NCBI GenBank assembly: GCA_951406725.2
Contig: OX597842.1
Coordinates: 8,184,001-8,248,000 of the forward strand
From: Octopus vulgaris
Lineage: Eukaryota
Direction: 5' to 3'
DNA: 64,000 nucleotides
Shown piece after piece: positions 13,053 through 48,790 of this stretch. Position numbers and translations under genes: made by a program. A model generated the notes under the pieces. It had not been told where the DNA came from. It did not search any database and was given only the letters and a program-made list of their open reading frames with translations. The stretch's first letter is position 1. Each line of letters begins with the position of its first letter.

Positions 13053-13375
13053 GATATAAATACAATACACAAAGCCCCTCCTCCCAGACCTGGCTTACAT
13101 TTCCCTTAGGAATGCGCCAGCTCTAGGTCGGTATCACAATTTATGACTCATCCTCAAAATAACAAACACAAATACTCCTTGTATCCCCAGATGGGGTGTA
13201 GGCACTTTTCTATTTTGTCCGTGCTTGCTTTTTCTAGACTTTTAGTTGTTTTGTTTGTTATTTTATAAATAATCCACCCTGCTGCATGATTTATCCTCAT
13301 CAGCTGCATAAACCTCGACAATATTTCAAATGTTGCCACATCTATGCCTGTACACTCGTCTGAACACCAAAACGT

Positions 13376-15608
13376 TAACAGAACGTTTTAGTATTTACAA
13401 TATAATGTGTACAGTATTTACAATATAGAGTTTACAAATTTAATATTACACAGTAGGGCAAGGAACCCAGCCACCCGGATAGAACCTTTACTTCCTGATC
13501 CGGCCACACTTACCTGGTGCCAAATATACCCAGCTTGCAAGCTACAGACTTCCATCTTTTCACAAACATATCTCGTGACAGACACCTCTTCTCCAGCCTG
13601 ATCTTAACCAACCCCTGGCTGTATACAAAGGTACCTGTCACTATACCTTTCGTACGTGTCTTCCATACTGTTTCTTTCAGTATGGCTACTACGCAGGAAA
13701 AACAAGCCTTCCTTTCCCTGCTGAGGAAGGGAGGTGGCACAATCTCAATGATAGGCTCCGCTGATAGCTGTACTCTTCCATTCACTGACAACAGTTGTTC
13801 GGCAAAAGCAATCAGTCCCAATAACTCCGGGCACTCCACGAATGCGTGCAAGACGGTTTCCCTATCCTGCTCACATCGCGGACATGTCAGCGAGATGGCA
13901 CTTCCGTGCCTTGACAGCTTGTCGTGAACAGGTAAAGCCGCACGGAAACACTGCCAGGCCAGGGATTTCTGGTAATTATCCAGGTACCCTGGCCCGAACG
14001 TTCTCCGGCACTACCGCCCATCCTCGGCAGACAGGGAGCAAAATAAATGTTAAACTGTCTGCCAAACAGGGACTTTAGGGCCCGTGGCTCGTGGAGTTTG
14101 GTGTCACTTATGGCTATGATTCCCAAATCGTGTGACTTGATGTCATTTAGGAGGTATCCTTGTTTCCAAGGAGACCCCCAAGCCACGCGCATTCACACAA
14201 CCAATCTTGACCATGATTCTATTGGGGTGTGTGCTTTAAAACACAAAAGGGAAGGTACAGAGAGTTACTTACTTGTGTCGAAAGTTTTGGCTTCCTCGTC
14301 CTTTGATGTGTCTTCGAGGAGGTTTTTATAAAGTTTTTGGGAGAGATATTTTTGGAAACCCCCTACAGCATTTGGGAAGAGGGCTTTGAGTTTGTGGTGT
14401 TGTGTTTGTGTGATGTGTAGTATTTTGATGTGTTTGGGTGGTGTAGTGCGTGGATGGTTGTTAGTTTTGAAGTCATCTTCACAGATGTTTGTGTGGGCTG
14501 TGATGTACTCCATTAGTTTGGAGTCTTTGGTGTTTATTGCTGATAGCATTGTGTGTGTTTTTGTGGTGTTGGTGCTTGTTTGGTTGTGTATGGAGCTTTC
14601 AGGGTTCAGGTATCCCCCTGATTTGGTTGCGTTTTCTTGTTTGGTTTTTCTTTTATCTTTTTCTCTTACCACCGGTGGCTATTTGCCATTCTGTCGAACT
14701 TTCATCATTAGATGAAAAGTCTGACGAATCAGCAGGGGGCAAGGGTAAAGCATCTGGGTCTGTTGTAGATATTGTTGTGGTGTGTGTGGGGGGGGCGGGG
14801 TGATTGTCTCTCCTACATCCTTGGTACTTGTCTTCGGTGTTGGAATTGGTTTAGTTGTTGGTGGTGGTGATGGTTCTGTTCTTGGCGCAGGTGGTGGTGT
14901 TGTTTGGTTGGGTTGGTCCGTTCTTTGTTGCTTTTCATGCATTTCTGCATATAGCTTCTTGATTAGCCGTCCATACTGTGGTGTGGGCAATAATGCTGGC
15001 TTTTGTGGTTTTTTCCTGTGGCTGTGGTTGTTGTTGTTTCGCGGCAGATTTGCACTCCTTTTTGAGGTGTGTTTCACTGCCGCATGTATAGCAGCGTGGC
15101 CTTCTGGCCTCGACTACTACATACAACTTGCGGTCATCCGCAAGATGTACGTGGGTGGGAATTTTATTGATGTCGTCTTGACTTATGTGGAAGAGGAACT
15201 CCATTCTCTTTCCCAGCCAGTCCTTGTTTTTCGAAACACCGATATCTATGATGTTTAAGTCCTCCATTTCGGATGTTAAGGTGGATGTTATCCACAGTGT
15301 TGTTGTTACTTCGGGGTCATTATTGATAATGACCTTTGTCACTTTGTGGCCAAGGTAACTGGGTGTCATTGTTAGCTCATCTGAATGAAGAGTTAGCGTT
15401 GGGAACTGCTTTGCCAACTCTTCATTCTGAAAAACCACTTGTACGTGGGTAAACTTGTTCGACCAAGTCACATACTCCTTGTATCCCCAGATGGGGCGTA
15501 GGCACTTTTCTATTTTGTCTGTGCTTGCCTTTTCTGGACTTTTAGTTGTTTTATTTGTTATTTTATAAACAATGGTTTTCTTTTTTTCCTCATTCAGTAT
15601 GTGTTGTG
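13376..15608 (-). mobile_element. Tx1 family D copy 2, internally deleted: APE start fused to the C-terminal zinc finger and 3' UTR
   Basis: 14007..15597 is near-identical to 11478..13052. 13510..14006 reads SLAWQCFRAALPV...CPRCEQDRETVLHAFVECP (zf-RVT-like). Confidence 0.8.
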
Positions 15609-16838: not shown

Positions 16839-17880
16839 GACGAGGACATTAATGAAGTGAATGATAATGAAAGAAAGATGATGGGGATGGGAGAAGACAA
16901 AAAGCACCCGCCGACTTCTGCCTCTCTAAAACATTGTTCTTTTAAAAACAAACACAAAACGAGGAATTAAACCTCTTACAATTTTTACAACTTTTCAATT
17001 TTTGGACTTAACAGTCCATTACTAACAACAACATAGTTCAATAATTACATATGATATAAATACAATACAGAAAGCCCCTCCTCCCAGACTCGACTTCAAA
17101 ATAACTTGTGCCCGCACCCTCCGCCATCCACCACGCCTCCCTCAGAATGTAATCGAGTTCCGTGTTAGCGTCACCCGGGACCAAGCTATAATCCTCATTG
17201 AGCTCCTTCAGCCCAAGCATCACGTCGAACGCCACGGCCTCCACAGCTACCTGCGGAGGCCATTCGGGGTCCTGTGTGAAGGCTAAAAGTGCTCCCTTAT
17301 GGTGCTTTTCCATCACCTTTTCAATCTCTCCGCTTCTATGGAAGAGGATCAATACATCGTTTTTCCTCGGGTGCGGGATATTCAATTCTTTCGTTGGCGG
17401 CACAGTCCCCGCCAACGGAATTTCTTCTCCTGTCGGTGGCACAACCCCAACTGACGTAGTTCCGGGACATTCCGGTACTATGTCACCGATTGCCGGTAAT
17501 GTCCTGTTTCTCTTCCTCTTTTTCTTTTTTTTCTTTTCAACTGAGGGAGGGTGCGTCTCCTCCGTGGCCGGAAGAGTCGCCTTTCCCTCCTCATCCCTAG
17601 TATCCTTTGGTGAGTACCCATTGTTGCTCACCTTCCTCTTTCGGCCTCTGTTTGAGGAGTCCTCCACTTCCTCGGCCGTTTTCATTCCCTTTTCTACAGG
17701 GGTTTCACTTAACTGCTCCGGGATCCTATTTTGTTCCTGGGGACAGTTTTTCTTTATATGGCCGGACTCCAAGCACCAATGACACCTAGGGGGGGGGGGG
17801 GCCTCAAGTATCACCGGGAACCTGCACCTGGCCATTTAAAAAAAATCTGGAAGAACCAGATTGGCTGATTGGGTCCAAAG
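16839..17880 (-). mobile_element. ORF1-only (HAL1-like) element family A, 3' half
   Basis: ORF 17038..17835 has CHWCLESGHIKKNC, a basic tract and the conserved C-terminal domain, running directly into the shared 3' UTR. Confidence 0.75.
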
Positions 17881-19297: not shown

Positions 19298-21494
19298 GAC
19301 GAGGACATTAATGAAATGAATGATAATGAAAGAAAGATGATGGGGATGGGAGAAGACAAAAAGCGCCCGTCGACTTCTGCCTCTCTAAAACATTGTTCTT
19401 TTAAAAACAAACACAAAACGAGGAATTAAACCTCTTACAATTTTTACAACTTTTCAATTTTTGGACTTAACAGTCCATTACTAAGAACAACATAGTTCAA
19501 TAATTACATATGATATAAATACAATACACAAAGCCCCTCCTCCCAGACCTGGCTTACATTTCCCTTAGGAATGTGCCAGCTCTTGGTCGGGGCCCCTCAA
19601 GTCGTATCACAATTTATGACTCGACTTCAAAATAACTTGTGCCCGCACCCACCGCCATCCACCACGCCTCCCTCAGAATGTAATCGAGTTCCGTTTTAGC
19701 GTCGCCTGGAACCAAGCTATAATCCTCATTGAGCTCCTTCAGCCCAAGCGTCACGTCGAACGCCACGGCCTCCACAGCTACCTGCGGAGGACAATAGGGG
19801 TCCTGTGTGAAGGCTAAAGGTGCTCCCTTATGGTGCTTTTCCATCACCTTTTCAATCTCTCCGCTTCTATGGAAGAGGATCAATACATCGTTTTTCCTCG
19901 GGTGCGGGATATTCAATTCCCGCCAACGGAGTTTCTTCTCCTGTCGGTGGCACAACCCCAACTGACGTAGTTCCAGGACATTCCGGTACTATGTCACCGA
20001 CTGCCGGCAATGTCCCGTTTCTCTTCCTCTTTTTTTTTTCTTTTCAACTGAGGGAGGGTGCGTCTCCTCCGTGGCCGGAAGATTCGCCTTTCCCTCCTCA
20101 TCCCTAGTATCTTTTGGTGAGCACCCATTGTTGCTCACCTTCCTCTTTCAGCCTCTGTTTGAGGAGTCCTCAACTTCCTCGGCCGTTTTCATTCCCTTTT
20201 CTACAGGGGTTTCACTTAAGTGCTCCGGGATCCTATTTTGTTCCTGGTGACAGTTTTTCTTTATATGGCCGGACTCCAAGCACCGATGACACCTAGTGGG
20301 GGGGGCGACCCTCAAGTATCACCGGGTACCTGCACCTGGCCATTTAAAAAAAATCTGGAAGAACCAGATTGGCTGATTAGGTCCAAAGGGTCAAAATTGT
20401 TTTTGACCCAACCCAAACAGCCGCAGGAAGAACTTTCACATTAAGAAGCTTAGTTCCGCTGCTACCCAGACCCCGGCGGATAGTATCCTTTATCCACTCG
20501 GGTTTTATCCCAGGTGGCAGCCCGCAGATCCAAGCTTTCGTCAGTCTCTTTCCATGGTACGTGGGCAGAAATAAAATTTCCTTACCCTCCAGGGATTTAC
20601 TAGCAAATTTGCATGCCTCTTGAAGGGTGTCAAATAGCAACCACACTGTTGCATATCTGACACCCCTGGAAATGAATTTAATTGTTGGCAAATACTCTGC
20701 CAACTCTTTTTCAATTGCCGTCTTTTCGAATAGGGCGATGGTGTCGAGTGCCTTGGAGTAGGTTCTCAACACCACCGTCCTATCTTCACAGTCTTTTAAC
20801 CACTTTTTAGGCGGTATAATCTCCCATTCCAAAATTTTGTCATTTTTCATTGCAATGTTTTTTTTTTTTTTTGAAATATATTCAAAATAAACTTAAAAAG
20901 TTTCAAAAGTCCAAAGAAAATTCGATAGATCTTTTGAAAAAATAAAGAAGATACAAAAAGGAGAAAGCACAACAGAAGGGAAGAAATCAACGGAAAGTCA
21001 CAATAAACAAAAAAAAAACAGAAAGGGGAGTTAAATAAAGTTCAAAAGAAAGTCAATAAACAGCAAAACACAGCAAAAATCTTCTGGCCTTACGGTACTC
21101 CCGGCCTGAGTTGAACCTGGAACGCTGCAACTGGAACACAACTTCCACAAAAATTGGTCCAAAAGGTAATCCAAAAGTGGCATATTCTTATAGTTTTCTT
21201 GCGAGATACGCCCACAAGAAGAATTCTCAATTCACCGTTACGGCCAAAATTCAACACTATTTTCAAACGAAAGTTTGGCAGGATACACCCACCAAACCAA
21301 TAATTTTCACAATTAAGTGAATATTTTCACTCAGCCTCAGGTTGCAACATACAACAGGTCCCCACGAGACCCCCAAAATTCTTACCTTACGGCTGAGTAT
21401 TCAAAAGTCTTCAATTTAAGACGGCTTTCAAAAACACATCTTACATCTGCGGTGTCCAGCACCACATTGACTTGCACATGCCTAGAAGCAACCT
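19298..21494 (-). mobile_element. ORF1-only (HAL1-like) element family A, 5' UTR plus ORF1 plus most of 3' UTR
   Basis: ORF1 starts MKNDKILEWEIIPP (20850), has RGVRYATVWLLF and LFLPTYHGKR motifs, and ends near 19614. No APE or RT follows. The 5' end abuts a SINE head. Confidence 0.75.
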
Positions 21495-25200: not shown

Positions 25201-26603
25201 GTTGAGAGCGAATAGTCGCTGGTATCGCGCGTATTGCTGTGCTTTTGCGCGTCTGCTCGATTTGTTAGGCCCGAAGCCGAATCTAAGATTCAATAGCCCT
25301 GCCTTGGCACCAGGGGCGGACTTCCTAGTCCTTTCACGGGCACCCACACGGCGCGATGCCATGTGGCCCACCCAATCCTCGACACGGTTCTCGAACTCGT
25401 TCCAGCTCGACTCTGAGCAGTCATCGCTGAGTGTCAGAAGGCTCTCAGCGAAAGACGATGCCCATGCGGAGTGACCTGGCGATGCAGCTCCACTGAACGG
25501 CTCCCACCAGTCTGAGCTGGCGGGCTGTAGCGGTGCCGTACTCCTCGCAGTTGTTATACCTCGCGCGGCAGCGGGGGCCTGTGGGACTTTCAGGCGATCT
25601 TTACGCAGATAGCAACGCTTGTCGCTGATCTGTTTTGCCGTTTTGTCCGGCAGCCAAGGGGCTATTCCCACATTGACTTGCTTACAACCCGCTTCAAGCA
25701 GCTCTTTTTCCTTTGTTAGGAGGATTTCTGTCTCCTCCTCCGTCCAGCACCCTCGCGGCGCTCTCCCTGTGGTGCGCGCGATTCGGGCGCGCTGTTCTCT
25801 CTTGCGCGCTATATCTTTCACGTAACTGGCGATCCTGTGCCTGTTCGCCTGCACAGGGTGCTTGTGCCGAAGGTGTTGTGACAGCCCGGAGGCTGTCCCG
25901 TAGGCTTGGCTACACCAGTCACATCCGTGCGGGAGTTGGTGCGTAACTAGTGCCGTTGGAACTGCGTTCCCCTTGCACTTTGCCGCATGGCATCTAACCG
26001 AGTGGAGGTGGCCGCTCTCGAGGCCGCAGCGACTACATCTGAAAACAGGCTTCGTATCGTGCCTGTTGAGAACGTGGAGCCCCCATTCGAGGGGGCCCGA
26101 GAAGTGTCGGGGGCAGAGTGGACACACAATAGAAATCGACGCGCATGGAATCTCCACGACGAACGCCTCGGCCGGCGGTTGGCGGGTCATTTCGCCATCA
26201 CCAGCCTCCCCCGCGTGCGTTCTGTCCTCAAGGGAGCGAGGGGGAACGGACATGGGAAGGTCGGCGGGAGTTGTTCACCACGGAGAACCAACGTATAGGA
26301 TGCTCATTCGAGGACAAAGCGTCCCGGTCTATCCCTGGAAACGGTAAGCGACCTAAAGCCGCTTCTAACTGACAAATTCTGTGGGTCTACCTGAATACAC
26401 CGAGGAGGGCAAAACCCTGTACCTACCTCAGGGGGAAGTAACTTTTCGCTGCGCCGTGGTCGCATCCCACTTCGCAACAGTACCTGAGGCCCTCCCCGGG
26501 ACCTCGAGGCCGCTAGCTTATCGACGCCTAGCTTCCGTATGAGACTTACCTTTTGTACTGACATCTTAAGTTTTCGACAGTTCCTCCGTGAACCCGAGCC
26601 GAC
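22245..26603 (-). mobile_element. R2 retrotransposon (R2-A-like: three zinc fingers plus Myb), near full length, frameshifted
   Basis: C2H2/CCHC/C2H2 fingers and Myb (WTEEETEILL...KQISDKR) in 24940..26253. RT with LDLAKAFD and LAYADDLVL. CRRC...HISGQC, RH and PD..D RLE motifs in 23077..23853. Confidence 0.92.
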
Positions 26604-26645
26604 GAGTCATAGTTACTCCCGCCGTTTACCCTCGCTTGGTTGAAT
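26604..26645 (-). rRNA. 28S rRNA fragment, upstream half of the R2 target site
   Basis: Minus strand ATTCAACCAAGCGaGGGTAAACGGCGGGAGTAACTATGACTC matches the conserved 28S sequence just 5' of the R2 site (1 mismatch to the consensus I recall). Confidence 0.92.
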
Positions 26646-26649
26646 CCTG

Positions 26650-26830
26650 GTTCAAAGAAACTAATTTTTAGTCCTAGTCCTGTACGTTATTCTGAATGGC
26701 CGTTCTCTCTCTTTGTCTTCCAGTCAAATACGCATGCTCTTTATATCAACGTTATTTGCATAACAAGTCCTCTTCCTCCATTTGTTCTCTTCATGTATAG
26801 GCAATCAATGTCACTATTTTCGCAGATAAG
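26650..26830 (-). mobile_element. R4/Dong/NeSL-type non-LTR fragment (post-RT region)
   Basis: Minus translation NSDIDCLYMKRTNGGRGL. Confidence 0.5.
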
Positions 26831-28784: not shown

Positions 28785-31700
28785 TCCTGTTTTGCTGCCA
28801 GTTGCAGTAGACATCTGCCAAGACGTCTCCAAACAAGTCTGGCATATGAAAATAAAGTTCGTAGGGCAGACCATCCAAGCCTGGTAACTTGTCTCTCGCG
28901 CAGCCTACCATCGCATCCTGTACGTCCGCAGCTGTGATAGGCCTTTCACAAGACTCCACCTCTCTTGCTGAGAGTCGTGGCAAGGCATGCAGGTAGGCAC
29001 TAAAGTCCACTCTGCGTTCTGACCCACCACTTGTCCCAAACAGTTGGGTGAAGTGTTGTTGAAAAGCCCCACACATCCTTTTAGGCTCGAGCAATTCGCG
29101 CCCCTGTTCATCTATAAGAGACTTGATGGTGGCTCTGTTGCCTCGTTGCGGTTCCAACTCCTTCGTTCCTCGGAGCACGCATCCTAGCTCTGACAACGCA
29201 TCCCTCGTGTTTGGCGTTGAGGTGTTGGTCGAGGGCCAATCTCGCCGCCAGCACGTTGGACGCGATGCCAGTTCTAAGTGCCTCTTCTAAAACCTTAACT
29301 AATTCTCCCTCTATTCTATTTTGGTCTAATGCTAGGGCTTTACTGTATCTGACTGATTCTGCTTTAATTGCTTTTTTTAGGGCATACCACCATCTGTTGT
29401 TGATGATGGTACCCGTCAAAGCTCTCTTAACTAATGTGCTGATCCGGTCCCTGTAAACCTGTTGTGCTGTAAAAGACGCGTTCAGTTTCCAGTAACCAGG
29501 ACCCTGCCTATGTGTCTTATCTAAGTCAAGTGTACAAGTCACAAACTTGTGATCTGTGTAACTGACTATATGAAATTGTGGACAACCTACACTATTTTTA
29601 TCTATTGTCCTACAGAATACTCTATCTAAGTATGATCTGGACGACCCGATGCGGTTACTCCATGTCCACATTGGCACATTCGGGTGGTCCAATCGGTACC
29701 TGTCAGACAGTTGGAAACGTCTGAGCAGGTCTTTGAGGCATTTGCATCCCCTTCTATTGCTATCTCTGCCCACGTAGTCTAGATGCGTGTCCAGGGTGGC
29801 ATTCCAATCCCCACTAAAAGTAAAGGACGAGACATTCCCATGAAAGACTCTAGACGTCGAAAGAAATCTGGTCGGCCTGTTAAGGACGGAGCATAAACTG
29901 CTATCAGTCGAAAAGCACACTCATTGCTGCCATCGACATCCAAAACGACCAGCCTACCCTCCGGGTCTAGGAAAATTGCTCTTACTTTGAGATCCAGACT
30001 CTTCCGGAGAAGCACCGCGGTGCCACCTCCGCCCATTCTCGGTAGACACAGAGGAAAATAAATGTTGAAATGTGTACCGAAACTGTGCTGGAGTGCCCGC
30101 AAGCTGTGGAGTCTGATCTCACTGATGGCTATGATATTCAGATTTAGTGACTTGATGTCATTTAACAGGTAGCTTTGTTTCCAAGGCGACCCCAAGCCAC
30201 GTACATTTATACTGCCTATTCTGAGCATGTTCCGATAAAAAATTGTGTTTTACACACGAAAAGAAAGTGCAAAAAAAGGAAAGAGAGAGAGAAAAGGTTA
30301 CTTGTTGTCCGAAAGTCCTTTGTTTTTCACCTCACAGTCTTCTTCCATGAGGTTTTTGTATAGTTTTTTCGATGAATACTTTTGAAATCTCCCTACTGCA
30401 TCAGGGTAAAGAGATTTCAGGGTGCTGTATGTGTTCTGTGTTACGTGTATTATTTTAATGTGTTGTGGTGGTGTTGTGCGTGGGTGGTTACTTGTTTTTA
30501 TGTCGTTTTCAGTTATGTTGGTGTTTGACCTAATGTGTTCCATTAGGTCGTGGTTGTTTGTGTTTATGGCTGTCAACATTGTTGGGGGGTTTGATGATGG
30601 TGTGTTTGTGTTGATGTGTTTGTTTTCTGTGGATGTTTTTGTTTCGGGAGTGGTGTATCTTCCTGCTTTGTTTGTTATTTTTTCTTTTCTTTTTTTTCCC
30701 CTTTTTCTTCTCCCCCCTGTGGCTATTTGCCAATCTTCCATGTCTTCGTCTAATGACAAATCAGACGAATCAGAGCTTGGAAGAGGGAAAATATTGGGGT
30801 CTATTGTAGACTGTGTTGATTTTGTTGTTGGTGTTGGTTGGTGAGCGTTTGGTTGTGGTGTATGCGGTTTTGGAGGTGGGGTGTGGGTATTTTGTGTTTG
30901 AGTGATTGTAGGTATTGTTGTGTTGTTTGGGGTCTCAATTTTGTGGGGATTTGGAGTTGTAATTGTTTCTTCATTTTCGCTGAGTGTCTTTTTGGCAGAT
31001 GTCCTTGGTTTGGGAGTTGGTTTATTCTTGGTTGTTGTTGTTGGTGATGTTGCTTCTGTTCTTGGTGCTGCAGTTGGTGTGGTTGTTTGGTTGGTGAGGT
31101 TTGTTCATACAAAACGTGGTGTGGGTAGTAAACCTGGTTTAATTGTTTTTTCCGGCTGCTGTTGTTGTTGCTGTTGTTTTCTTGCGGCAGATTTGCAGTC
31201 TTTTTTTTAGGTGTTGCTCACTGCCGCATATGTAGCAACGTGGTCTTCTGCCATCGACAACCACATACAACTTGTGGTCTTCTGATACACATTATCTGGG
31301 TGGGTATTTTTTTTATGTCTTCTTGATTTACGTGTAGTAGAAATTCTACTTTTTTTCCCACCCAGTTTTTGTGCCCCGTGACCGTGGTTTCCAAAATTGT
31401 GAAATTTGTCATTTTTACACATAAGGCCTTTACTAGCCATAGATTATTGGCTATTTTGGGGACATTGTTTAAAGTGATCTTAGTCACTTTCTGTCCCCGA
31501 TAACTTGGTGTTAGTGTAAGTTCATCTGAATGAAGAGTTAGCGTTGAGAAACGTCTTGCTAACTCTTCAGTGTGGAAAACCACTTTTATGTGGGCGAACT
31601 TGTTCCACCAAGTCACATAGTCTTTGTAGTTGCAGATGGGTTTCAAGCATTTTTCTATTTTGCTTGTGTTAGCCTTCTCTGGGCTTTTTGTTTTCTTATT

Positions 31701-34040
31701 AATTATTTTATAAATAATTGTTCTTTTTTTTTCATCTTCCAATATTTCTTCTGGTATGTTTATCTTCACTATACCATCTAATTCTGTTACTGTAATGTTT
31801 GTGTCTTGTATTTGTTGAGCAGTAAAATATACTGTTTAATTGTTTTTTCCGGCTGCTGTTGTTGTTGCTGTTGTTTTCTTGCGGCAGATTTGCAGTCTTT
31901 TTTTAGGTGTTGCTCACTGCCGCATATGTAGCAACGTGGTCTTCTGCCATCGACGACCACATACAACTTGTGGTCTTCTGATACACATATCTGGGTGGGT
32001 ATTTTTTTTATGTCTTCTTGATTTACGTGTAGTAGAAATTCTACTTTTTTTCCCACCCAGTTTTTGTGCTCCGTGACCGTAGTTTCCAAAATTGTGAAAT
32101 TTGTCATTTTTACGCATAAGGCCTTTACTAGCCATAGATTATTGGCTATTTTGGGGACATTGTTTAAAGTGATCTTAGTCACTTTCTGTCCCCGATAACT
32201 TGGTGTTAGTGTAAGTTCATCTGAATGAAGAGTTAGCGTTGAGAAACGTCTTGCTAACTCTTCAGTGTGGAAAACCACTTTTATGTGGGCGAACTTGTTC
32301 CACCAAGTCACATAGTCTTTGTAGTTGCAGATGGGTTTCAAGCATTTTTCTATTTTGCTTGTGTTAGCCTTCTCTGGGCTTTTTGTTTTCTTATTAATTA
32401 TTTTATAAATAATTGTTCTTTTTTTTTCATCTTCCAATATTTCTTCTGGTATGTTTATCTTCACTATACCATCTAATTCTGTTACTGTAATGTTTGTGTC
32501 TTGTATTTGTTGAGCAGTAAAATATACTGTTTAATTGTTTTTTCCGGCTGCTGTTGTTTTCTTGCGGCAGATTTGCAGTCTTTTTTTAGGTGTTGCTCAC
32601 TGCCGCATATGTAGCAACGTGGTCTTCTGCCATCGACGACCACATACAACTTGTGGTCTTCTGATACACATATCTGGGTGGGTATTTTTTTTATGTCTTC
32701 TTGATTTACGTGTAGTAGAAATTCTACTTTTTTTCCCACCCAGTTTTTGTGCTCCGTGACCGTAGTTTCCAAAATTGTGAAATTTGTCATTTTTATGCAT
32801 AAGGCCTTTACTAGCCATAGATTATTGGCTATTTTGGGGACATTGTTTAAAGTGATCTTAGTCACTTTCTGTCCCCGATAACTTGGTGTTAGTGTAAGTT
32901 CATCTGAATGAAGAGTTAGCGTTGAGAAACGTCTTGCTAACTCTTCAGTGTGGAAAACCACTTTTATGTGGGCGAACTTGTTCCACCAAGTCACATAGTC
33001 TTTGTAGTTCCAGATGGGTTTCAAGCATTTTTCTATTTTGCTTGTGTTAGCCTTCTCTGGGCTTTTTGTTTTCTTATTAATTATTTTATAAATAATTGTT
33101 CTTTTTTCATCTTCCAGTATTTCTTCTGGTATGTTTATCTTCACTATACCATCTAATTCTGTTATTGTAATGTTTGTGTCTTGTATTTGTTGAGCAGTAA
33201 AATATACTGTTGTTTTTTTCTTTAATCGCCTCAGCGAAATTTGTTGTTGTTTTGTTATTGTTGTTGCTGGTGGTGATGTTGTTGTTGGCTGCAGTTTGTA
33301 AAATTGGTGTGTTTGGTTCAATTGTGCAAGTAGGAAGGGGTGGAAAATTATTTTCATAATTTATCCCTGTATTCGAGCAGCTTTTGTCAATTTGTTTGGT
33401 GGTTACAGTTTTTTGTTTATTCACTTCAGTTCTTGTTGTTGGAGTAAAACAGGTCTGAACAGAATTGTTGTTGTTGTTGTTTTTGTTGTTGGTGGTGGTG
33501 TCAGTGGCAGAAGCGACAGCCGAGGCAGCAGATGTCGAAATGGTGGCGCAATTTTTATTTTTGCTGTCATTGTTATTGTTGTTGCTGTTGGTAGTTGAGG
33601 TAGTGGATGAGGTGGTGGTGAAGGCGGTGGTGGTAACAGTAGAAGTCTCTATGTTGTTCTTGCTAGTGGCGGTGTTGGTGACAGGGCTGTTACTACACGT
33701 AGTAGTAGCGTTCATTGCAAATTCATTGATAATTTTACTTTGCGCGCAAAATTCTTTTTTTTCTCCTAGCGTTTCCGGTCTAGGAGAAAGCTGGTCAATA
33801 AAGGAACGTGACCATCATTCTACAATACAATTTCTTGACATTTTGAAAATGTCTAGAAAGAAATTACAAAAATTAAATGGGGTTGAAACTGCCCCTAGGG
33901 GCGAATTCCTTCCTTGGAAAAGCACTCAAACGAAAGTTGGGTGCCTTACACACCTTATTTACAAAAATGTACACAAAAATTAGGCTATAAATAGTCAAAA
34001 TAAACGATTACCTTTGGAGTTGAAGTGACAGCACGTCTGT
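28785..34040 (-). mobile_element. Tx1-clade element family E (5' UTR, ORF1, APE, linker; truncated at the RT start), nested in piggyBac
   Basis: ORF1 with Thr/Asn-rich N-terminus and CYICGSEQHLKKDC. ORF2 MLRIGSINVRGL...GPGYWKLNAS...PGLDGLPYELY. The 5' end reads AGACGTGCTG next to a (GATA)n tract. Confidence 0.88.
31137..33211. repeat. Three tandem ~695-bp units inside family E ORF1
   Basis: aattgttttttccggctg recurs at 31141, 31838 and 32533; ORFs 31218, 31787 and 32482 are near-identical. Confidence 0.95.
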
Positions 34041-34829
34041 AGATGGATAGATAGATAGAGAGGCAGGCAGGCAGATCTCTCTCTGGCAGGCTTTGCTTTT
34101 CCTTCCTGCAGTTATTTTTTTTGAGGAATATCCTGCCCTCAACTTAATTGCTACATCTGCCTGGAACTGCAGATGGTCGCACCGCTTGCGAACCCCTCCT
34201 GATTTGGTATATAATATAAATGCATTTACAATGCTCATGTTTATTATATACCAAACCAGGTATCGCCACCATTTATTACCCGGTCTACCAACCGGATAAT
34301 AACTCATCATCTGGTTCAGCCGATCCACACCGCCCATGTACCTGTTATAACCAAGGTTCACAAACAGAGTGCCATTTTCATCTATACATGGTTGTGCACT
34401 GGTAGATAGAAAATTTATCTGCCTCTTATCCCTGTATGCAGTCGCTAGCAGATTTCCTTTCTGCCTTTGGATTATTTCACCTCTTTTTTTAAATTTTGCT
34501 TTTTTTATATCCAACGGCAGCCCTTTTCTACTAGCAATTACTGTAGAACACGTATACGTTGCCACGGCTTCTAAATCCGCCGCAAGTTTGACCGAACTGA
34601 AAAATCGGTCAAAACATAATATTCGGTCCTGGTTATGGTATGGAAGAGATAAATTCCAGACCACATCGTATCCTAGGCCGTGCTGACTAACATTATTGTC
34701 TCTTTTCCCTGTATAGAAGCTAAATCCACAGCAGTACCCACTTTTTGCTTCACATATTTTCCAAACTTTGATCCCCCATTTTGTGGGCTTTCCTGGCATA
34801 TACTGCCGAAAACGTACTCGGCCTTTATA

Positions 34830-35171
34830 GTTTCTTGGCTGCTTCCCATGTCAGGCTGGTGCTCCTGAGCTTGTCCAAAATGCTCTGTTTCCATGCCTGC
34901 TTCAGGCGTCCTCGCTTCCTTTTCCCCTGCGGGTTCCAGTCAAGTGCTTGTCGTGTCACATTTGAGGGTTCTTTCCACAGTGTGTCCAATCCATCTCCAT
35001 TTCCTTTGTCTAATCTGAACATGTATGGGCTCCTGGCTGGCCCTTTCCCACAGGTCGGTGTTTGGTACTCTGTCGAACCACTTCAGATGGAGGATCTGCC
35101 GGAGACATTTGTTGATGAAGGTCTGGATCTTCTTGTAGTTGCTGCAGGTAGCTCTCCATGTTTCAAGTTCC
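34830..35171 (-). mobile_element. RTE-type LINE 3'-region fragment inserted in the piggyBac catalytic motif
   Basis: ETWRAT...KIQTFINKCLRQIL...RKWRWIGH, QALDWNPQGKRKRGR; near-identical to 39347..39688. Confidence 0.8.
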
Positions 35172-36593
35172 TCATCGACGGATAAATACCTTCCAGGGTT
35201 GTAAAATTTGTTGTAGGCATTTTGAACACCGTCAATGAGGGGTCTTATTTTAAATAAGGGATCAAAGTTTGGTTCTCCACATACTGGGGTACTGCTAGTG
35301 TCTCTCACATGTAAATACTGGCTCAGTTTCACAAATCGTATTCGGGTCATAATACTGGAAACATACTGATCTCCAAAAAGTTCCTGATTGCTCCAGTAAT
35401 TCGTAATTCTGGGCAACTGCCTTATGCCCATAATAATATTTATGGCAAAAAATGCCCGCATTTCTTCTATAGTTGCTGGATACCACAAGCTATCTTTTTT
35501 TCGAGCTTGTTTACTTTCTGCATAACGATTCGTCTCCGCTGTTATTGCTTCAAACAAGCATACAGGAAAAAAAAAAAAAAGTCTATTGGTCTTGCTTCCT
35601 GAGAAAGACTATGGGTAGACCCCGTCTCCTCAGAAAAATCGTTAATCGACACTTTTTTTAAATTGTTACTCCATTCTGGTGTAAATTTATCCTTGTTTGT
35701 GTCGCTGCTTTCAGTCTCTGATGAATCGCTTTCGGATACTGAAATATCCGATTCGAATGCATCCACCACGTGCTTTTCTGCTTCTTACGTTCCTCTCCTC
35801 GAAATCTCCATATCTTCTCTTGAAAAACCTTCAAATTCGGAGTCACTGCTTGATAGCATAAAACTGCTCTCCATTTTGAAAGTTGAAAAAAATTTCCCTT
35901 GATAAAAATGTGGAAAAAAATCTCCAAAAATTCTCAGAGTTCAAATATCACACCAAACAATGTCGGATACAATAACTCAAGTGTTAGCAAAGTGAAATCA
36001 TGTGTTTTAACGAGTGTACCAACGAGATTTGGGTTCAAATTTACATTTAAATAACAATAGCTTCTCACGGCCGGGTATGGCTGGGTTAGTAACATAAACC
36101 AAAAAGTTTTACGGCCGGGTATGGTCGAGTTAGTAACGAAAGGGTTAATAACGTGATTTGTTTATTTTTTCAGCGATTTCATAGAGCGGTCGGATTTGGC
36201 CGGTTTGAACAAATAAAGGGGAATTAATTTTGGCCGGTTACGGCTGGTTTGAACACTAAAGTATTAAACCTACTTTCTTCAGACCAAGTGTTGCGTCGAA
36301 GAATTTCCGCCTTGACAGACGCATAGGTGGCGTCTGGGCTAGGATCTGTAATTGCGATCTCCAGCAGATGTGGTGAGTTGTATTATAACAACATCTGATA
36401 ATCTGATTGATCATGTCATATTTCTTTGTGCATGAAGTCTGTCTGCTTCAAAGAAGGTTTTCCTATAAATCTTACAATGATATTCTTTAACATTTCTGCA
36501 TAATGGTCTTTGTTTAGTAAATGCTTCACTGCATAAAGGTTTCTCACTGATGTCCGTGCAGTTTCTAGTGAAGTGACTCCAATTTCTTATCCT

Positions 36594-36983
36594 ATACTCT
36601 TTTTTTACTCTTACTTGTTTCAGTCACGTGACTGTGGCCATGCTGGAGCACTGCCTCTAGTCAAGCAAATCAACCCCAGGACTTTGTAAGCCTAGTACCT
36701 ATTCTATCAGTCTCTTTTGCTGAACTGCTAAGTTACGGGGACATAAACACACCAGCATCGGTTGTCAAGCGATGTTAGGGGGACAAACACAGACACAAAC
36801 ATATACACACACATACATACATATATATATATATACATATATACGACGGGCTTCTTTCAGTTTCCGTCTACCAAATCCACTCACAAGGCGTTGGTCGGTC
36901 CGAGGCTATAGTAGAAGACACTTGCCCAAGATACCATGCAGTGGGGATGAACCCAGAACCATGTGGTTGGTTAGCAAGCTACT
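36594..36983 (-). mobile_element. SINE S1 body and tail, cut at the Tx1/HAL1 target site
   Basis: Matches S1 up to ggttagcaagctact, then switches to the retroelement 3' end; the missing head is at 39020..39058. Confidence 0.9.
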
Positions 36984-39019
36984 TTATTTCAAAACATTTG
37001 CCATAAAGGCAGTACAGAGATTAAGTTAGCTTTGCGGGCTGGACGAGGACATTAATGAAGTGAATGATAATGAAAGACAGATGATAAGGATGGGAGAAGA
37101 CAAAAAGCGCCCGCCGACTTTCGCTTCTCTAAAACATTGTTCTTTTTAAACACAAAACGAGGTATTAAACCTCTTACAATTTTTCCAATTTTTGGACTTA
37201 GCAGTCCATTATTAATAAAAATGCAAAACGAGGTATTAAACCTCTTTCAATTTTCCAATTTTTGGACTTGGTAGTCCATTATTAATACTAACAGTTCAAT
37301 AATTACATATCGTCCTCGAAATAGCTTGTGCCCGCGCCCTCCACCATCAACCACGCCTCCCTCAGAACGTAATCAAGTTCCGAGTTCGCGTCGCCAGGGA
37401 CCAAGCTATAATCTTCATTGAGCTCCTTTAGCCCAAGCGTCACGTCGAACGCCATGGCCTCCACAGCTATCTGCGGAGGCCATTCGGGGTCCTGTGTGAA
37501 GGCTAAAGGAGCTCCCTTGTGGTACTCTTCCATTTTTTTTTCAATTTCTCCTCCTCTATAGAAGAGGACCAATACGTTCAGTTCTTTCGTTGGCGGCACA
37601 GTTCCCGCCAACGTCTGCGGCTCATGGATATCAGCTGCCCGACCTTTTTCTCCTCCTTCTTTTGGGGGAGACTGCTGACCCAGGGGACTCCGTCACCAGA
37701 CACGGGGGATTGCTATCCCCCTCCGCCACCTGAGCGTTCTTTGGCGAGCAGCCATTGTTGCTCGCCTGTCTCTTTCTTTTCGTGGAGGCAACCTCCTCCA
37801 TGACTTTCACCGTCTCCCCCTCCAATGAGGGGGCGGCGGGCGCCTTTTCCCCTTCATGCTCCGGGGCACCACCACGGCCCCCGGGACAATTCCTCTTGAT
37901 ATGTCCGGGCTTCAGGCACAGGTGACACTTGGGGGGCGTCCCTCGAGTATCACCGGGTACTTGTGCCCAGCCATTCTCAGGAAGTCCGGGAATTTCATTT
38001 CTCCCACGGCCACCGGTGTCCACAGGGTCAAAGTTGCCTTTGACCCCTCCCAGGCGACCGCGGGAGCCATTTTCACACTCAGTAGCCTGGGTCCGCTAAC
38101 CCCCAGGCCTCGCCGGATGGTCTTCTTGATCCATTCCGCCTCCGTGCCCGGGGGCAGCCCACAAACCCAGGCTCTTTTTACTTTTCTGCCACAATACGAG
38201 GGGAGGAACAAAATTTCCTCTCCCTCCGGTGGCTCGCTAGCAAATCTGCTAGCTTCCTCGGGGGTACCAAACAGCAACCACACCGTTGCAAATTTACTCC
38301 CCCGAGAAATAAACTTTATCGTTGGTAGGTGGTCCCCCAACTCTTTCTCTATGGTGCTCCTGTCGAAGAGGGCGATAGCTCCACGCGACCTAGAATAGGT
38401 TCATAGGACCACCGTCCTCTTCTCAAGACTTTCAATCCACTGCTTGGGTGGGACAACCTCCCATTCCAAAGCAGTGGTTTCTTTTGTTGCCATGATTTTG
38501 AAAAAAAAGTTCAACTAAAAGTTCAAAGTCCAATAAGAAAAAAACACAATGACAGAATGGAAAGACAGAGCAGAGAAAAGGACGAAGGAAGACAGTTCAA
38601 ATAATGGCAACACAGTTCTGCAACTGGTAATCCTCACGAAACAGGGTACTCCTAGTTGCAGCACACTTGGTTCTCCGTGGTAAATCCAAGCACAATTGGT
38701 TCTCCGTGGTAAATCCAAGCGAACAAATTAATTTTTGAGGAGGGGCTATGCCTCTTCAAAATACACAATTCTCACTAAAAGGTGAAACAATAAATACGCC
38801 AACAGGCAGAACAAATACATCCGAAGCAAAGTGAAGCTTATTACGTGCAGAAAAGTGTTAACACTAATTAACATTAATGCCAAAAAAGTATTAACGGCAA
38901 GCAATAAACCTCACTATGCTTCCAAAAATATCCAAAATGTCCTACCTGTTGCCGTAAAATGTTCAATAATTCACGTTAACACGTGACATTTGCCGGAGCA
39001 AAAAACAGCACGTCTGTCT
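36984..39019 (-). mobile_element. Apparently complete ~2.0-kb ORF1-only (HAL1-like) element, family B/A type, inserted in SINE S1
   Basis: 5' end AGACGTGCTG, ORF1 (ISRGSKFATVWLLF, LFLPSYCGRK, CHLCLKPGHIKRNC, C-terminal ...EDDM*), 3' UTR ending in AATAAA. Flanked by ggttagcaagctact / ggtaagaagctact. Confidence 0.8.
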
Positions 39020-39058
39020 GGTAAGAAGCTACTTACCACACAGCCATTCCTACGCCTA
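39020..39058 (-). mobile_element. SINE S1 head fragment (other half of 36594..36983)
   Basis: ggtaagaagctacttaccacacagccattcctacgccta. Confidence 0.85.
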
Positions 39059-42273: not shown

Positions 42274-43308
42274 AGGAAGGAGCTGCAGGTCCTCCTGTGT
42301 TCCTTGAATTATTACATTAATGTCTCGCCCAAGCCAATATAGAGGGGCAGAGCATGTTACTTGTAGTATTTTAATTTTGTCCGTCCTTTTATTTAACAGG
42401 GCGGCCACTACCTCTACGGGATCTACTTCTGGCGGTGCTTCTGCAATCCTGACCCGGGATGTCCTGCATCCCCTATAGGTTGGCAGAAGTACCACCTCCT
42501 TGGTTTTTAGGGGATTCACAGAATGCCCACGGGCCACCTCTTCCCCCGAGAAGTGGACCTCCACAGTGCCATATGCCCGTCCCCTGGCGACGTACACAAT
42601 GTCCTTCCAAATCGGGGACAGGCATTTCTCGATAGTATTCTTTTCAAAGTGTTTGAACCTTCTGCTTTGTGGACGGAAGGTTTTAAACACTACGGTCCGC
42701 TTCTCGGTCTCCACGATACTGGCGGAGGGTGATATTTTAACATCACCACCCTCCTCTTTCATTCTTTTAAATAGCTCGATGAGCTGATTGACATTGATGT
42801 CAATGTTCTTGGTTGCCACTGCGGCTACCGTCGAAAATTTTTTACTACAGTTATCAACATTGCTCTCCTCTAGAGCACTATTTTCGTGAATAATCTCAAC
42901 AGACATTATTCTGTTGAAATTAGTAATAGACAACACAAAAAATACAAATATTAGTTTCCCACAAAACTGGGAAACCTAAAAAAGTTTCTTCCAAGCAGTT
43001 CAAAAATTAGGTTTAATTCCCACCCCCATTCGGGGGAGGGGCACGAAGATAGTCTGGCAAGACTAACAGTCACGTAGATAAAAAAGCCACAATGGCTAAC
43101 AGTTCAACAGTAACAAATTATCCAATTATTCCCCGGTAAAACTGGAGAACAAGACAGTTCAACAACGTTCAAAAACAAATTTTCAGTAGTAAAATTCAAC
43201 AAGTTCCAGATGGTACGAAGTAATATTAACAACACAGCAAAACTCTTACCGGGAAGAAAATGCGTCCAAACTGTAGTAAGGTAAGCAAAGTCACTCTTCA
43301 GTCAGTGA
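42274..43308 (-). mobile_element. Tx1-type family C 5' UTR plus ORF1 N-terminal half
   Basis: ORF 42175..42936 (MSVEIIHE...EKRTVVFK...IEKCLSPIW...RGRAYGTVEVHF...LLPTYRG) is a paralog of 47440..48258. The 5' end abuts ggttagcaagctact. Confidence 0.8.
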
Positions 43309-43323
43309 GGTTAGCAAGCTACT

Positions 43324-44670
43324 TTATTTCAAAACATTTGCCATAAAGGCAGTACATAGAGTAAGTTGGCTTTGCGGGCTGGACAAGGACATTAATGAAG
43401 TGAATGATAATGAAAGAAAGATGATAAGGATGGGAGAAGACAAAAAGCGCCCGCCGACTTCTGCCTCTCTAAAACATTGTTCTTTTTAAGGATAAACACA
43501 AAACGAGGTATTAAACCTCTTTCAATTTTTCAATTTTTGGACTTAGCAGTCCATTATTAATAATAACAGTTCAATAATTACATATCGTCCTCGAAGTCGC
43601 TTGTGCCCGCGCCCTCCACCATCAACCACGCCTCCCTCAGAACGTAATCAAGTTCCGAGTCAGCGTCGCCCGGGACCAAGTTAAAGTCTTCATTGAGCTC
43701 CTTTAGCCCAAGCGTCACGTCGGACGCCACGGCCTCCACAGCTACCTGCGGAGGCCATTCGGGGTCCTGTGTGAAGGCTAAAGGTGCTCCCTTGTAGTGC
43801 TCTTCCATCACTTTTTCAATTTCTCCTCCTCTATAGAAGAGGACCAATACGTTCAGTTCTTTCGGTGGCGGCACAGTTCCCGCCAACGGTATTCCTTCTC
43901 TTGTCGGTGGCACAACCCCAACCGACGTAGTTCCGGGACATTCCGGTGCTACACTGACAGTCGGTAATGTCCCGTTTTTCTTCCTCTTTTTCTTTTTTTT
44001 TTCCCTTTTCAACTGAGGGAGGGTGCGTCTCCTCCGTGGCTGGAAGATTCACCTTCCTCTCCTCATCCCTATTATCCTTTGGTGAGCACCCATTGTTGCT
44101 CACCTTCCTCTTCGGCCTCTGTTTGAGGAGTCCTCTGCTTTCTCGGCCGTTATCATTCCCTCTTCTAGAGGGGTTTTACTTAACTGTTCTGGGAGCCTAT
44201 TTTGTTCCCGGGGACAGTTCTTCTTTATGTGGCCGGACTCCAAGCACCGATGACACTTAGGGGGCGACCCTCAAGCATCACCGGGTACCTGCACCCGGCC
44301 ATTTTCAAAAAATCTGGAAAAACCAGATTGGCTGATTGGGTCCACAGGGTCAAAATTGCTTTTGACCCAACCCAAGCAGCCGCAGGAAGAACTTTTACAT
44401 TAAGGAGCTTAGTTTCGCTGCCACCCAGACCCCGGCGGATAGTCTCCTCTATCCACTCGGGTTCTATGTCGGGTGGCAGACCGCAAATCCAAGCTTTCAT
44501 CAATTTCTTTTTTTTGTACGTGGGCAGGAATAAGATTTCCTTACCCTCCAGGGGTTTGCTAGTGAGCACCCATTGTTGCTCACCTTCCTCTTTCGGCCTC
44601 TGTTTGAGGAGTCCTCTGCTTTCTCGGCTGTTATCATTCCGTCTTCTAGAGGGGTTTTACTTAACTGTTT
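43324..44670 (-). mobile_element. ORF1-only (HAL1-like) element family A', 5'-truncated, intact 3' end
   Basis: ORFs 43578..44012 and 44225..44569. The 3' junction ctact-ttatttcaaaacatttgcc is identical to that at 36981. Confidence 0.8.
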
Positions 44671-46175: not shown

Positions 46176-46199
46176 ATTTGATGTTCGGATGGTCAAGTC

Positions 46200-48790
46200 T
46201 CTAACGAACCGCCAGCTGAAACCGCTTAAGCAGATCCACGAGATGTGAGTTCACTTTCCTATGGATCGAGCCAACACTATCGATGTGTACGTCAACGATA
46301 GCATTAAAGTCTCCTAATACTACTAAAGTCTTCGACATCACGAGAAAGCCCTCTAGGTACTGATAAAAATCAGTTTGGAAGCCTCTAGCACAAGGTGCAC
46401 AGAGTCCGATCAACCTGAAGGCCTTACTGCTGTATGTCACATCAAGGACGACCAGCCCACCTTCAGGGTCCACATAGACTGTACTTGTCTGCAGAGCCAA
46501 GCTTTTACAGATCAGTACCACTACACCCCCTCGTCCTCCGGTCTGACCGGGAGACATGATTTTCTCGTAGCCATTCAGGAGAGGCGAGAAGGTTTGTAGA
46601 TTATCCAGCTTGGTCTCTGTAGCAACCATCACATGCATATCATGTGATCTGAGATCGTCGAGGAAACACGCCTGCTTCCACTTCAAACTCAGACCACGCA
46701 CATTCAAACAACCAAGGTTAAGAGACGCCGTTACAATAAGTAAAGGTTCTACTTACATTTCTTTGGAGATTTGGGGGCTGACCTTACCACATGTGGATCC
46801 GTCCCCTTCTCGTATCTCTTCGCGTAACCCGGTAAATCCACAATCTTCCATATGGCCATCTGGTTTCTGTCCTTTAGTTCCCGGTATAGGGATTTTTCTA
46901 CCCTTGCACATCTGTTCTTCAAATCATGGTGTTGGATGTACAGCATAGTCCTTTTGTGCTTTAAAAGGGCGTCACTTGTATACGTGTCTGTCGTATCGTA
47001 TTCCACCAACATAACATTTTTGTTTTCTTCCGGGACAGATGGGCAGGGTTTCTTTTTTGGTGTCTGTGGTGCGTTTTTTTCTGTTTTGTGTGGAGGATAT
47101 GGGTTGTGAAGGTCTACGGGAACGTTTCTTTCCCACTAGTGTGAATCCAACCTCTGAAACCTCCATGGTGTTATCTGAGGGGTTGGTGGCAGTTTCTTTC
47201 GGCGCAGTGTTTTCCATTGGTGCCGGGTCTTCCAAGAGGGTTGGGTCATTTTGTTTATGTAGGGACTTGTGCATGCCGGGGCTGGGTTTTTCTGTGCTTT
47301 GTTTGGAGACTAGCACCTCAACAACGGGGGTGGGAGTTTTTGTTTGTGGGGGTTGGTGTGTTTGCGGGGGCGGGTTTTTTTTTTTGTTATTTGAGGGGCC
47401 TGGTGTTTGCAACAACTTTTCTTTTTCTTCACAGTCAGCTCAAATGTGGCCCTTTTTTCCGCATTGGTAACAGGTGGGCTTACGGCCTTCCACCTGTACC
47501 CTAAGGGCCACATTCTCCCCAACGAGTACTCTCTCTGGTAGGACTTGAATGTCCTCCTGTTTGCCTTGTATTAAAACCGTTATGTTCCACCCTAACCACA
47601 TCTGTGGGGCGGAACTTGTGGTCTGTAATATGTTAATCCGGTCCGTCCTGTTAAACAACAGGCCGGCCACCACTTCTTTCGGGTCTACTGTGGGTGGGAT
47701 TTTGTTAATCCTTACACGGGATGATCGTCGCCCCCTGTATGTTGGCAAAAGTACCACTTCCTTGGTCTTCAGGGGGAATACGGCGTGCCCGCAAGCCACC
47801 TTTTCCTCTGAGAATTGAACCTCAACGGATCCGTATGCCCGTCCCCTCGAGATATACACTATATCCCTCCATATCGGGGCCAGTCATTTTTCAATGGTTT
47901 CCTTCCCGAAGTGCTTAAACCTTTTGTCTTGTGGGCAGAAGGTTTTAAACACCACGGTCCTCTTTTCCGTTTCTAGCACGGTGGAGGAGGGCGATATCAC
48001 AACATCACCTCCCTCCTCCTTCATTCTTTTAAAATATCCCTGCAGCATGTCTGCAGAGATATCTATGTTTTCGGTTGCTACTTTTGCAACTGCTGAAAAC
48101 TTTTTCTCAGCGTTGGCGCAATTGCCAACATCAACATTGCTCTCTTCAAGATCAGATTTTTCATGTATTATTTCAACCGACATGGTTGAAAAGTAATTGG
48201 TTTCCCACAAAACTGGGAGACCTTTCGAAAAAAGAAATTTTCCGCTCACAGAGGACAAAAGTAATTAATTTTTTAAATACTCGCAGTCCTAGGTTCAAAT
48301 CCCACCCCCGCTGGGGGGTGAGACGTAGCAACAAAGTCTACGACGATTTGAAATTATTTTCCACTACAACGAAATCCCCAAAAAGGGAAACCTATATTTT
48401 TTCCAAAACAGGACGACAACAGTTCAAATCTCGCCTGTGCTACGGGTGGATGTCACAATAGAGCCTACAATGGCTAAAATTTAATTTTTTCACAACAATT
48501 TGCTATCCCAAAAATGGGAAGCCTATAATATTTCTTTTCCTCTTAATCAGGATAACAGTTCAAATGCCACTCCCGCAGGGAGGGGGGGGGCACAACAATA
48601 AAGCCTACAACGGCTTTAACAAGTTCAACAATATTAATAATTCAATATTAATTTTTTTTTTCCCTTACAACAATTACTTTTTCCCGTCACCGGGAAGAAA
48701 ACACAAAAGTTCACAAAAATATTCAATAAACTAAACAGCAGAAAAATTATCCGTGTGACTCACCGCAAAAAAAACACCGAACATGTCTGA
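46200..48790 (-). mobile_element. Tx1-clade family C element (5' UTR, ORF1, APE N-half), 5' end at the SINE target site
   Basis: ORF1 with CYQCGKKGHI knuckle; ORF2 start NVRGL...VATET...LCAP...LGDFNA. The 5' end is followed by ggttagtgagctacttaccacgcagcc. Confidence 0.85.

Follow-up and report, generated by a model that had tools for sequence, protein, structure and literature searches.

An ORF1-bearing element within an octopus SINE

The window, i.e. the whole stretch of 64,000 nt of Octopus vulgaris DNA that was analysed, is a dense cluster of mobile elements. On its minus strand, positions 36985-39019 hold an element of 2035 bp which consists of a 5' UTR, one ORF1 and a 3' UTR and is referred to here as family A. 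The ATG start codon of ORF1 lies at 38493 and the stop codon at 37303-37305. In the direction of transcription the features are as follows.

39035..39058, minus strand: 5' head of the host SINE (A-box side), upstream of the insertion, 87-93% identical to three empty SINE heads
39020..39034, minus strand: 5'-side target copy, 15 nt, one base shorter than the 3'-side copy and with one substitution
38494..39019, minus strand: 5' UTR, 526 nt, with a CAGAC-type motif at its start
37931..38493, minus strand: N-terminal part of ORF1 with two predicted RRM-like domains (fold taken from the relative P0001, 64% identical)
37883..37930, minus strand: CCHC zinc knuckle, out of frame with the RRM part in this copy
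37612..37882, minus strand: low-complexity linker and basic tract, with the second frameshift near 37643 and an identity switch at ~37613
37303..37611, minus strand: orphan C-terminal domain of ORF1 (~100 aa, no homologue detected) and stop codon
36985..37302, minus strand: 3' UTR, 318 nt, without poly(A), with a ~70-nt tandem duplication at 37150-37292
36969..36984, minus strand: 3'-side target copy, 16 nt
36605..36968, minus strand: remainder of the host SINE (B-box side, body and tail), 81-89% identical to empty copies

The initial annotation had described an element bounded by a duplicated target, the two copies of which differ at two positions, and a 3' UTR of ~320 nt that ends in AATAAA without poly(A). 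Target copies of 16 and 15 nt are indeed present at both ends, and the comparison of 36969-36984 with 39020-39034 resolves the difference into one substitution and one missing base. The 3' UTR runs directly into the target at the measured length. The hexamer is present as well, but it spans the junction of element and target and is completed by the first target bases, since its final AA can be read as part of the target.

A single open ORF had also been assumed for this copy. This has to be corrected: ORF1 is interrupted by an in-frame stop at 38401-38403 and by frameshifts near 37930 and 37643. Public contigs show length differences at both frameshift sites with the net result of an unbroken ORF1 frame. 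Hence the frame of family A is most likely one ORF, and the copy at 36985-39019 is dead or mis-assembled.

Copies of family A in the window and in public data

Three further stretches of the window carry family-A sequence.

19298..21494, minus strand: A1b, an independent copy that starts at the same SINE site; ORF1 runs into the 3' UTR, and family-B sequence takes the place of the last ~55 nt
43325..44670, minus strand: A1a, an independent copy without its 5' end; the 3' end is complete, and a 16-nt target copy and the 5' end of an element of family C2 come next
16839..17880, minus strand: local duplicate of the A1b 3' half within a tandem A/B chimera, not independent

Only the copy at 36985-39019 keeps both ends. 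It was suspected to be chimeric near 37612, which is confirmed by a switch of identity at about 37613. Upstream of this position it is 65-79% identical to other family-A copies, downstream 92-97% to the copy at 43324. We conclude that it is a dead mosaic of subfamily A2 (5' part) and subfamily A1a (3' part). One contig crosses the mosaic junction without a mismatch (37560-37867), but it may stem from this very locus in a different animal. The mosaic and the unequal target copies would both be accounted for if two filled SINEs had recombined; a recombinant subfamily is an equally possible origin of the mosaic.

The A1a copy (43324-44670) shows an internal duplication. The stretch 16839-17880 and a fragment at 15607 are 93-98% identical local duplicates of 19298-21494, fused to family B. 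The flanks of the other three insertions match one another only inside the SINE. As 16839-17880 merely duplicates the A1b locus, the window contains three independent family-A insertions and not four. The continuity from the ORF1 stop into the 3' UTR, initially reported for three further copies, thus holds for 19298-21494 and 43324-44670, whereas the third is a duplicate.

Part of the stretch was found in 20 of 24 listed public runs, which cover nine studies and four organisms. Four runs were mapped. All bins were covered in three of them and 29 of 30 in the fourth, and every one of the four contains variant family-A contigs. Two DNA runs of two organisms yielded 27,038 and 26,888 matching records, many on SINE flanks, with all 30 bins covered. 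The tandem duplication of the 3' UTR is skipped in high-depth public contigs: the corresponding joint of 37218 to 37293, located beside the stop, reaches a depth of ~910 and ~940 in two organisms. Depths of ~2100 and ~1600 are found for two contigs that are 98-99% alike to the 5' UTR. Moreover, contigs that are only 85-86% alike join the 5' or the 3' end to the same SINE site. Among the contigs listed for the four runs, which are dominated by SINE records, none spans the whole element, and a minority of copies with ORF2 behind ORF1 may have escaped this comparison. Metagenome and viral collections gave no family-A match, or five chance 21-mers.

The insertion site

Two further elements of the window adjoin this SINE site or a copy of its target.

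46180..48790, minus strand: family C, which begins at the same SINE site and retains ORF1 and the start of ORF2 (APE) but has lost its 3' part
42275..43307, minus strand: 5' end with ORF1 of family C2, immediately after the target copy of A1a

Empty copies of the host SINE are located at 27270, 56460 and 63859. Three of the seven SINE heads in the window are filled, namely by A2, A1b and C, and all three full SINE-head junctions (39020, 21495 and 48791) fall within one base of each other. The two complete 3' ends of family A, which have no poly(A), adjoin the target at an identical base, and C2 begins directly behind the target copy of A1a. A target common to families A and C had been proposed before and is corroborated by the 5' junction of family C at 48791. 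In contrast, family B (34040, behind a microsatellite-like run in piggyBac) and family D (~1070) are not inserted at the SINE site. Two contigs of ~1230 nt (X11 record 16 and X4 record 32) agree at 86% with the SINE head plus the initial ~137 nt of the element and diverge beyond this point; they represent a further family at this site. The runs X4 and X11 are possibly RNA.

We take the host SINE to be tRNA-like and CORE-like, and the A-box and B-box labels within its head are likewise our assignment. The insertion separates the A box from the B box. No tRNA or Rfam family was detected in the window or in the SINE head. A CORE SINE from Octopus, OR2, is described in the accessible portions of PMC4758252.

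The junctions imply a first nick at CTT/ACC on the antisense strand, hence at a T/A step. L1-type endonucleases nick at such a step. The target site is an imperfect palindrome and is found on both strands at the junction, so that symmetric nicking would be possible. One SINE variant occurs in four of the five filled-site target copies (21495, 36969, 43308, 48791) versus one of four empty heads (56447 and 63872 compared). This enrichment may reflect a target preference, for which the numbers are too small.

Alternatively, the element could spread together with the SINE, either as a co-copied unit or by SINE-SINE recombination, rather than by its own site-specific insertion. In favour of this, the target copies differ at 2 of 16 positions despite a body that matches public contigs at ~99%, and the sequence is mosaic. 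For this copy, both features would follow from recombination of two filled SINEs. However, the unrelated families A2, A1b and C meet the SINE at the same base. The order of A1a, 16-nt target and another element is what repeated insertion at a regenerated site is expected to leave, and the insertion splits the presumed A and B boxes. Spreading with the SINE is hence improbable in our view, and site-specific insertion is the preferred reading.

ORF1 encodes a putative type I ORF1p with an orphan C-terminal domain

A profile was built from eight ORF1 pieces of the window and matched 677 proteins at E up to 0.001. Named homologues stem from Octopus sinensis, O. vulgaris, O. bimaculoides and Argonauta, and all seven named in one look-up are octopods. 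The best match, P0001 (O. sinensis LOC115225585), is 66-72% identical to family A. In O. sinensis this family-A ORF1 is listed as a host gene, under three protein accessions. Further relatives of ORF1 have been merged with unrelated gene models of octopus (P0034, P0044, P0086, P0112).

The predicted structure of P0001 (77 sequences, pLDDT 82) consists of two RRM-like domains followed by a CCHC knuckle. It aligns with the La RRM at Z 8.9 over 81 residues (rmsd 2.6), and its Foldseek matches include tandem-RRM proteins. Based on this model, the family-A ORF1 is predicted to be a type I LINE ORF1p, i.e. two RRM folds plus CCHC. In its accessible portions, PMC5203782 describes this type and calls it consistent with Tx1. 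The ORF had initially been called gag-like. We replace this designation, as the solved-structure matches to nucleocapsids cover the knuckle alone. The zf-CCHC match in the family-A ORF1 itself (E 0.0026, 18.2 bits) stays under the cut-off of 20.8. Among the 77 alignment members zf-CCHC matches nine and Transposase_22 none. L1 ORF1p was not seen among the fold matches listed for the P0001 model; the two may nonetheless be related.

A C-terminal domain of ~100 aa follows the linker and the basic tract in the family-A ORF1, whereas P0001 ends after the basic tract without it. Word-based protein searches with the ORF that spans CCHC and C domain gave no match, and neither did a word-based search of the C-domain alignment among longer proteins. 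The Atlas returned nothing for the C domain at 0.9 or above, and no relationship of the domain to ORF2 was detectable. By eye it resembles the C-terminal modules of the B/C-type ORF1s. We rejected this kinship because it is unsupported by HMM (score -2), hhalign (probability 0.13) and BLAST (unrelated). The predicted model of the domain is poor (pLDDT 55).

The ORF1 tree is based on 49 N-domain rows, composed of eight rows from the window and 41 of 150 retrieved public proteins, namely those with at least 125 profile positions covered. Family A and P0001 form one group with a support of 100/100. The stem of this group is long, measuring 2.0 substitutions/site where end branches have a median of 0.59. 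A sister relationship to B or to C has no support, and the placement of such a long branch is unsure. The ORF1s of families A and C share 27-33% identity.

ORF1 evolved under purifying selection between the lineages

A dN/dS analysis of ORF1, as proposed by the initial annotation, gave values of 0.12-0.41 over six between-lineage domain comparisons. For the N domain, A2 vs A1 shows dN/dS of 0.12 and 0.17, with pN/pS of 0.30 (95% 0.23-0.39) and 0.32 (0.22-0.46); dS reaches up to 1.4-2.0 in these comparisons. For the C domain the values across the A1a/A1b split are 0.22, 0.39, 0.38 and 0.41 at a dS of ~0.35, and the bootstrap interval of pN/pS lies below 1 in all four cases. The linker shows a dN/dS of 0.47. 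Comparisons within subfamilies (n=3) gave 0.44, 0.61 and 0.65 with pN/pS intervals that include 1; these close pairs are thus indistinguishable from neutral. ORF1 thus evolved under purifying selection between the family-A lineages.

These values also bear on the possibility that a single decayed insertion gave rise to the copies through local segmental duplication, with no transposing family behind them. Such duplicates do exist in the window (the stretches at 15607, 16839 and 19298, 93-98%), and all 19 ORF1 matches lie on one of its strands. Local duplication does not, however, account for three main copies with unrelated flanks beyond the SINE, nor for dS of 1.4-2.0 at dN/dS of 0.12-0.17. 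Moreover, all four mapped runs contain variant contigs, two of these contigs reaching a depth of ~1600-2100, and a further subfamily is annotated in O. sinensis. We regard this explanation as largely refuted and very improbable.

No ORF2 in the family-A copies of the window

An ORF2 profile was assembled from eight public relatives and the zf-RVT end found in the window. It gave 11 matches in the 64-kb window, none of which falls into the four family-A stretches, and relaxed tblastn for ORF2 in the family-A copies returned short chance-level matches only. The ORF2 relatives match L1 ORF2p best (E 3e-50 vs 4e-24 for R2). In families B and C the endonuclease begins right behind the ORF1 stop, whereas family A has its 3' UTR there; this arrangement is common to all three independent insertions. 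One public contig crosses the ORF1 stop (37224-37385). The absence of ORF2, which the initial annotation had asked to be checked on more copies, thus holds for the window. Since the C domain adjoins the same 3' UTR on the A1a and the A1b side, a loss of ORF2 that preceded their split, with ORF1 remaining under selection thereafter, would be the simplest reading.

Family A could instead be mainly autonomous, equipped with ORF2, the copies of the window being deletion derivatives concentrated in the cluster as TRE5-A.2 is derived from TRE5-A.1. The selection on ORF1 would then date from the autonomous phase. Internal deletions are common in the window (e.g. the ORF2 deletion at 14010), and the sequence behind the stop differs by ~110 nt between A1b and A1a/A2. 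In addition, a contig of 1200 nt (run X11, record 10) matches family A at 37643-37935 only (91%) and runs on into an unlike stretch after 37643, its 646 further letters not being among the listed matches. On the other hand, a clean loss of the whole ORF2 without a remnant would be needed at least twice, and a deletion within a UTR of the A1b type accounts for the shorter junction. High-depth contigs of two organisms join the stop-proximal sequence to the 3' UTR. The summed depth peaks of the C domain (230k/195k) are close to those of the 3' UTR (261k/208k), a weak argument as depth does not equal copy number. Overall we consider deletion from an autonomous family unlikely.

Taken together, family A is probably a real ORF1-only, site-specific and non-autonomous family of the L1/Tx1 type, and an old, multi-copy element in octopuses is, with the same good probability, part of the best explanation. 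The ORF1-only reading of the initial annotation is thereby strengthened by three insertions, by the selection on ORF1 and by contigs that bridge the stop.

The surrounding cluster

All 19 ORF1-profile and all 11 ORF2-profile matches lie on the minus strand and belong to about eight separate L1/Tx1-type insertions (1-48800). The same strand carries Gypsy (3048-5009), RTE-like (7262-9867), RT-bearing (23077-26274) and piggyBac (34008-35608) ORFs. With its elements on one strand, the transposon cluster may be comparable to a uni-strand piRNA cluster.

At 10668-21494, 3' halves of family A make up a tandem chimera with ORF1 pieces of family B. Three to four repeats of it are present (93-98% identity), and short words are common to the joins. 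The RRM/CCHC region of a family-B ORF1 is present in three tandem copies of ~695 nt (31137-33211, 96-98% identity). At 13322-15600, a family-B copy has lost most of its ORF2, the start of the endonuclease being joined to the zf-RVT end at 14010. This is apparently a second, one-off deletion derivative that keeps ORF1. A GC-rich (55-58%) element of the single-ORF type, which we take to be R2/NeSL-like, occupies 22500-26700; it codes for zinc fingers at the N-terminus, an RT and a CCHC region at the C-terminus.

A possible partner in trans

The window contains a single ORF2 3' end.

13322..14010, minus strand: C-terminal remnant of ORF2 (zf-RVT) plus 3' UTR, fused to the beginning of a family-B endonuclease, terminal 9 nt in common with family A

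This end is family-B-like (13513-14010, 53% to P0153); P0153, a relative of the window ORF2, is L1-like. The ORF2 of family C breaks off in the endonuclease at about 46180, and the family-C 3' end is absent from the window. The terminal 9-mer of family A recurs 183 nt after the only ORF2 stop, and its occurrences on the minus strand are restricted to the B-like ORF2 end and two family-A ends. The chance of this is ~0.004 in 250 nt for a motif that was picked after looking. Local alignments of the family-A 3' ends to the ORF2-bearing end are not significant (p 0.21 and 0.23), and the B-like end is not adjoined by the SINE target. The shared 9 nt may represent a clade-wide 3' motif. A 3' hairpin is no better than in shuffled sequences (z 0.11 and -0.02, 60 nt).

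At the 5' ends, local alignment gave p under 0.05 in 2 of 10 pairs. Families A, B, C and D all begin with a motif of the CAGAC type (39017, 34040, 48789 and ~1073), which may be a start-site or promoter motif of the whole clade. The element at 36985-39019 and family B share 13 identical nt here. As the motif opens families C and D too, this match names no partner, and we dismissed it as a sign of family B.

Mobilisation could proceed as follows. The full-length family-A RNA would yield ORF1p, which would package its own RNA in cis. An APE/RT ORF2p from an autonomous relative with the same target would nick the antisense strand at CTT/ACC, bind the 3'-terminal ~30 nt of the family-A RNA and copy it by target-primed reverse transcription. 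We tentatively favour a C-type partner, as the initial annotation had proposed. A so far unseen A-type autonomous element is a less likely source, a B-type element ranks behind it, and a partner other than these three types is the least likely of the four.

Comparison to known systems

HAL1 carries a poly(A) tail and is not known to have a fixed target site. Family A differs in both regards. HAL1 ORF1p moreover is of the mammalian Transposase_22 type (coiled coil, RRM, CTD), whereas that of family A consists of RRMs and CCHC. Membership in HAL1 proper was rejected on these grounds. Common to both is that only ORF1p is encoded: according to the accessible portions of PMC5753468 and PMC5786205, HAL1 derives from the L1 group, is non-autonomous and has no coding capacity beyond ORF1p. 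The latter source also lists HeT-A, HAL1 and Ag-Sponge as ORF1-present non-autonomous LINEs derived from Jockey, L1 and CR1. HeT-A and Ag-Sponge are termed bipartite there, with a protein thought to multimerise with that of the autonomous partner. Family A likewise is an ORF1-present non-autonomous LINE, but HeT-A and Ag-Sponge belong to the Jockey and CR1 clades while the relatives of family A have an L1-like ORF2. HeT-A resides at chromosome ends and family A in SINE heads. It was hence not assigned to HeT-A, given the SINE-head insertion and ORF1 relatives coupled to an L1-like ORF2.

TRE5-A.2 of Dictyostelium keeps ORF1, has its ORF2 deleted, is mobilised in trans and needs the 3'-terminal ~87 nt (PMC3159450, accessible portions). 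According to the same portions, TRE5-A inserts ~50 bp upstream of tRNA genes via a contact of ORF1 with TFIIIB, and a near-identical autonomous sibling exists. Family A resembles TRE5-A.2 by a kept ORF1, a missing ORF2 and an aim at Pol III units. It differs by inserting at a fixed sequence inside the tRNA-like head, and no close autonomous sibling is seen in the ORF1 tree.

Families of the Tx1 clade target other repeats, i.e. Tx1L the piggyBac Tx1D, Tx1-Mar and SINEU the Mariner-N4, and Keno U2; they are also reported to insert in tandem at their site and, judging by a common target, to carry a non-autonomous passenger (PMC4494074, accessible portions). Site-specific insertion into another repeat and tandem insertion thus link them to family A. 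However, the passenger there is a non-coding SINE whereas family A codes for ORF1, and the accessible portions of PMC4494074 name no SINE as a target, which is the target of family A. Two Tx1 traits are found in family A, the predicted type I ORF1p (RRM and CCHC) and the preference for a target sequence. Of the traits of ORF1-present non-autonomous LINEs it shows ORF1p without ORF2p, three independent insertions (one with both target copies) and an ORF1 under selection between lineages. The initial designation as HAL1/HeT-A-like thus stands for the working mode and falls for membership, regarding ORF1p type, tail, clade and target. Family A resembles HAL1, HeT-A and TRE5-A.2 in its working mode and belongs to none of them.

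For O. vulgaris, 13 recently active L1-Tx1 families are reported in PMC13282606, the accessible parts of which do not describe structure or target, and its supplement gives 80 L1-Tx1 families by name only. The papers searched mention no octopus element that is ORF1-only and of the Tx1 type or that targets a SINE. The family may nevertheless be contained in Repbase, in Dfam, in the Zenodo library of PMC13282606 or in subscription journals, all of which lay outside this search.

Significance

The concept of an ORF1-keeping non-autonomous LINE is known. New are the combination of target specificity to a single base, lack of poly(A) and a SINE as target, and the orphan C domain. Family A would add a Tx1-type case to the examples from L1, Jockey, CR1 and Dictyostelium. 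It offers a system for asking why a non-autonomous element keeps its ORF1 selected and how a foreign site-specific ORF2p is recruited. For the latter question it is a clean one because the target reports which partner was used. The locus also points to a group of octopus LINEs that inserts into SINE promoters and probably silences them.

A further reading, which we hold to be rather unlikely, is that family A represents a long-lived ORF1-only lineage without an autonomous sibling, with an ORF1p far removed from all relatives and a selected C domain that captures the ORF2p of other L1/Tx1 elements or aids the aim at the Pol III promoter of the SINE. If true, family A would act as a hyper-parasite able to switch partners. 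By separating the A box from the B box it would inactivate copies of a very abundant octopus SINE, and symmetric nicks in the palindromic target (GGTAAG-N7-CTTACC) might be involved.
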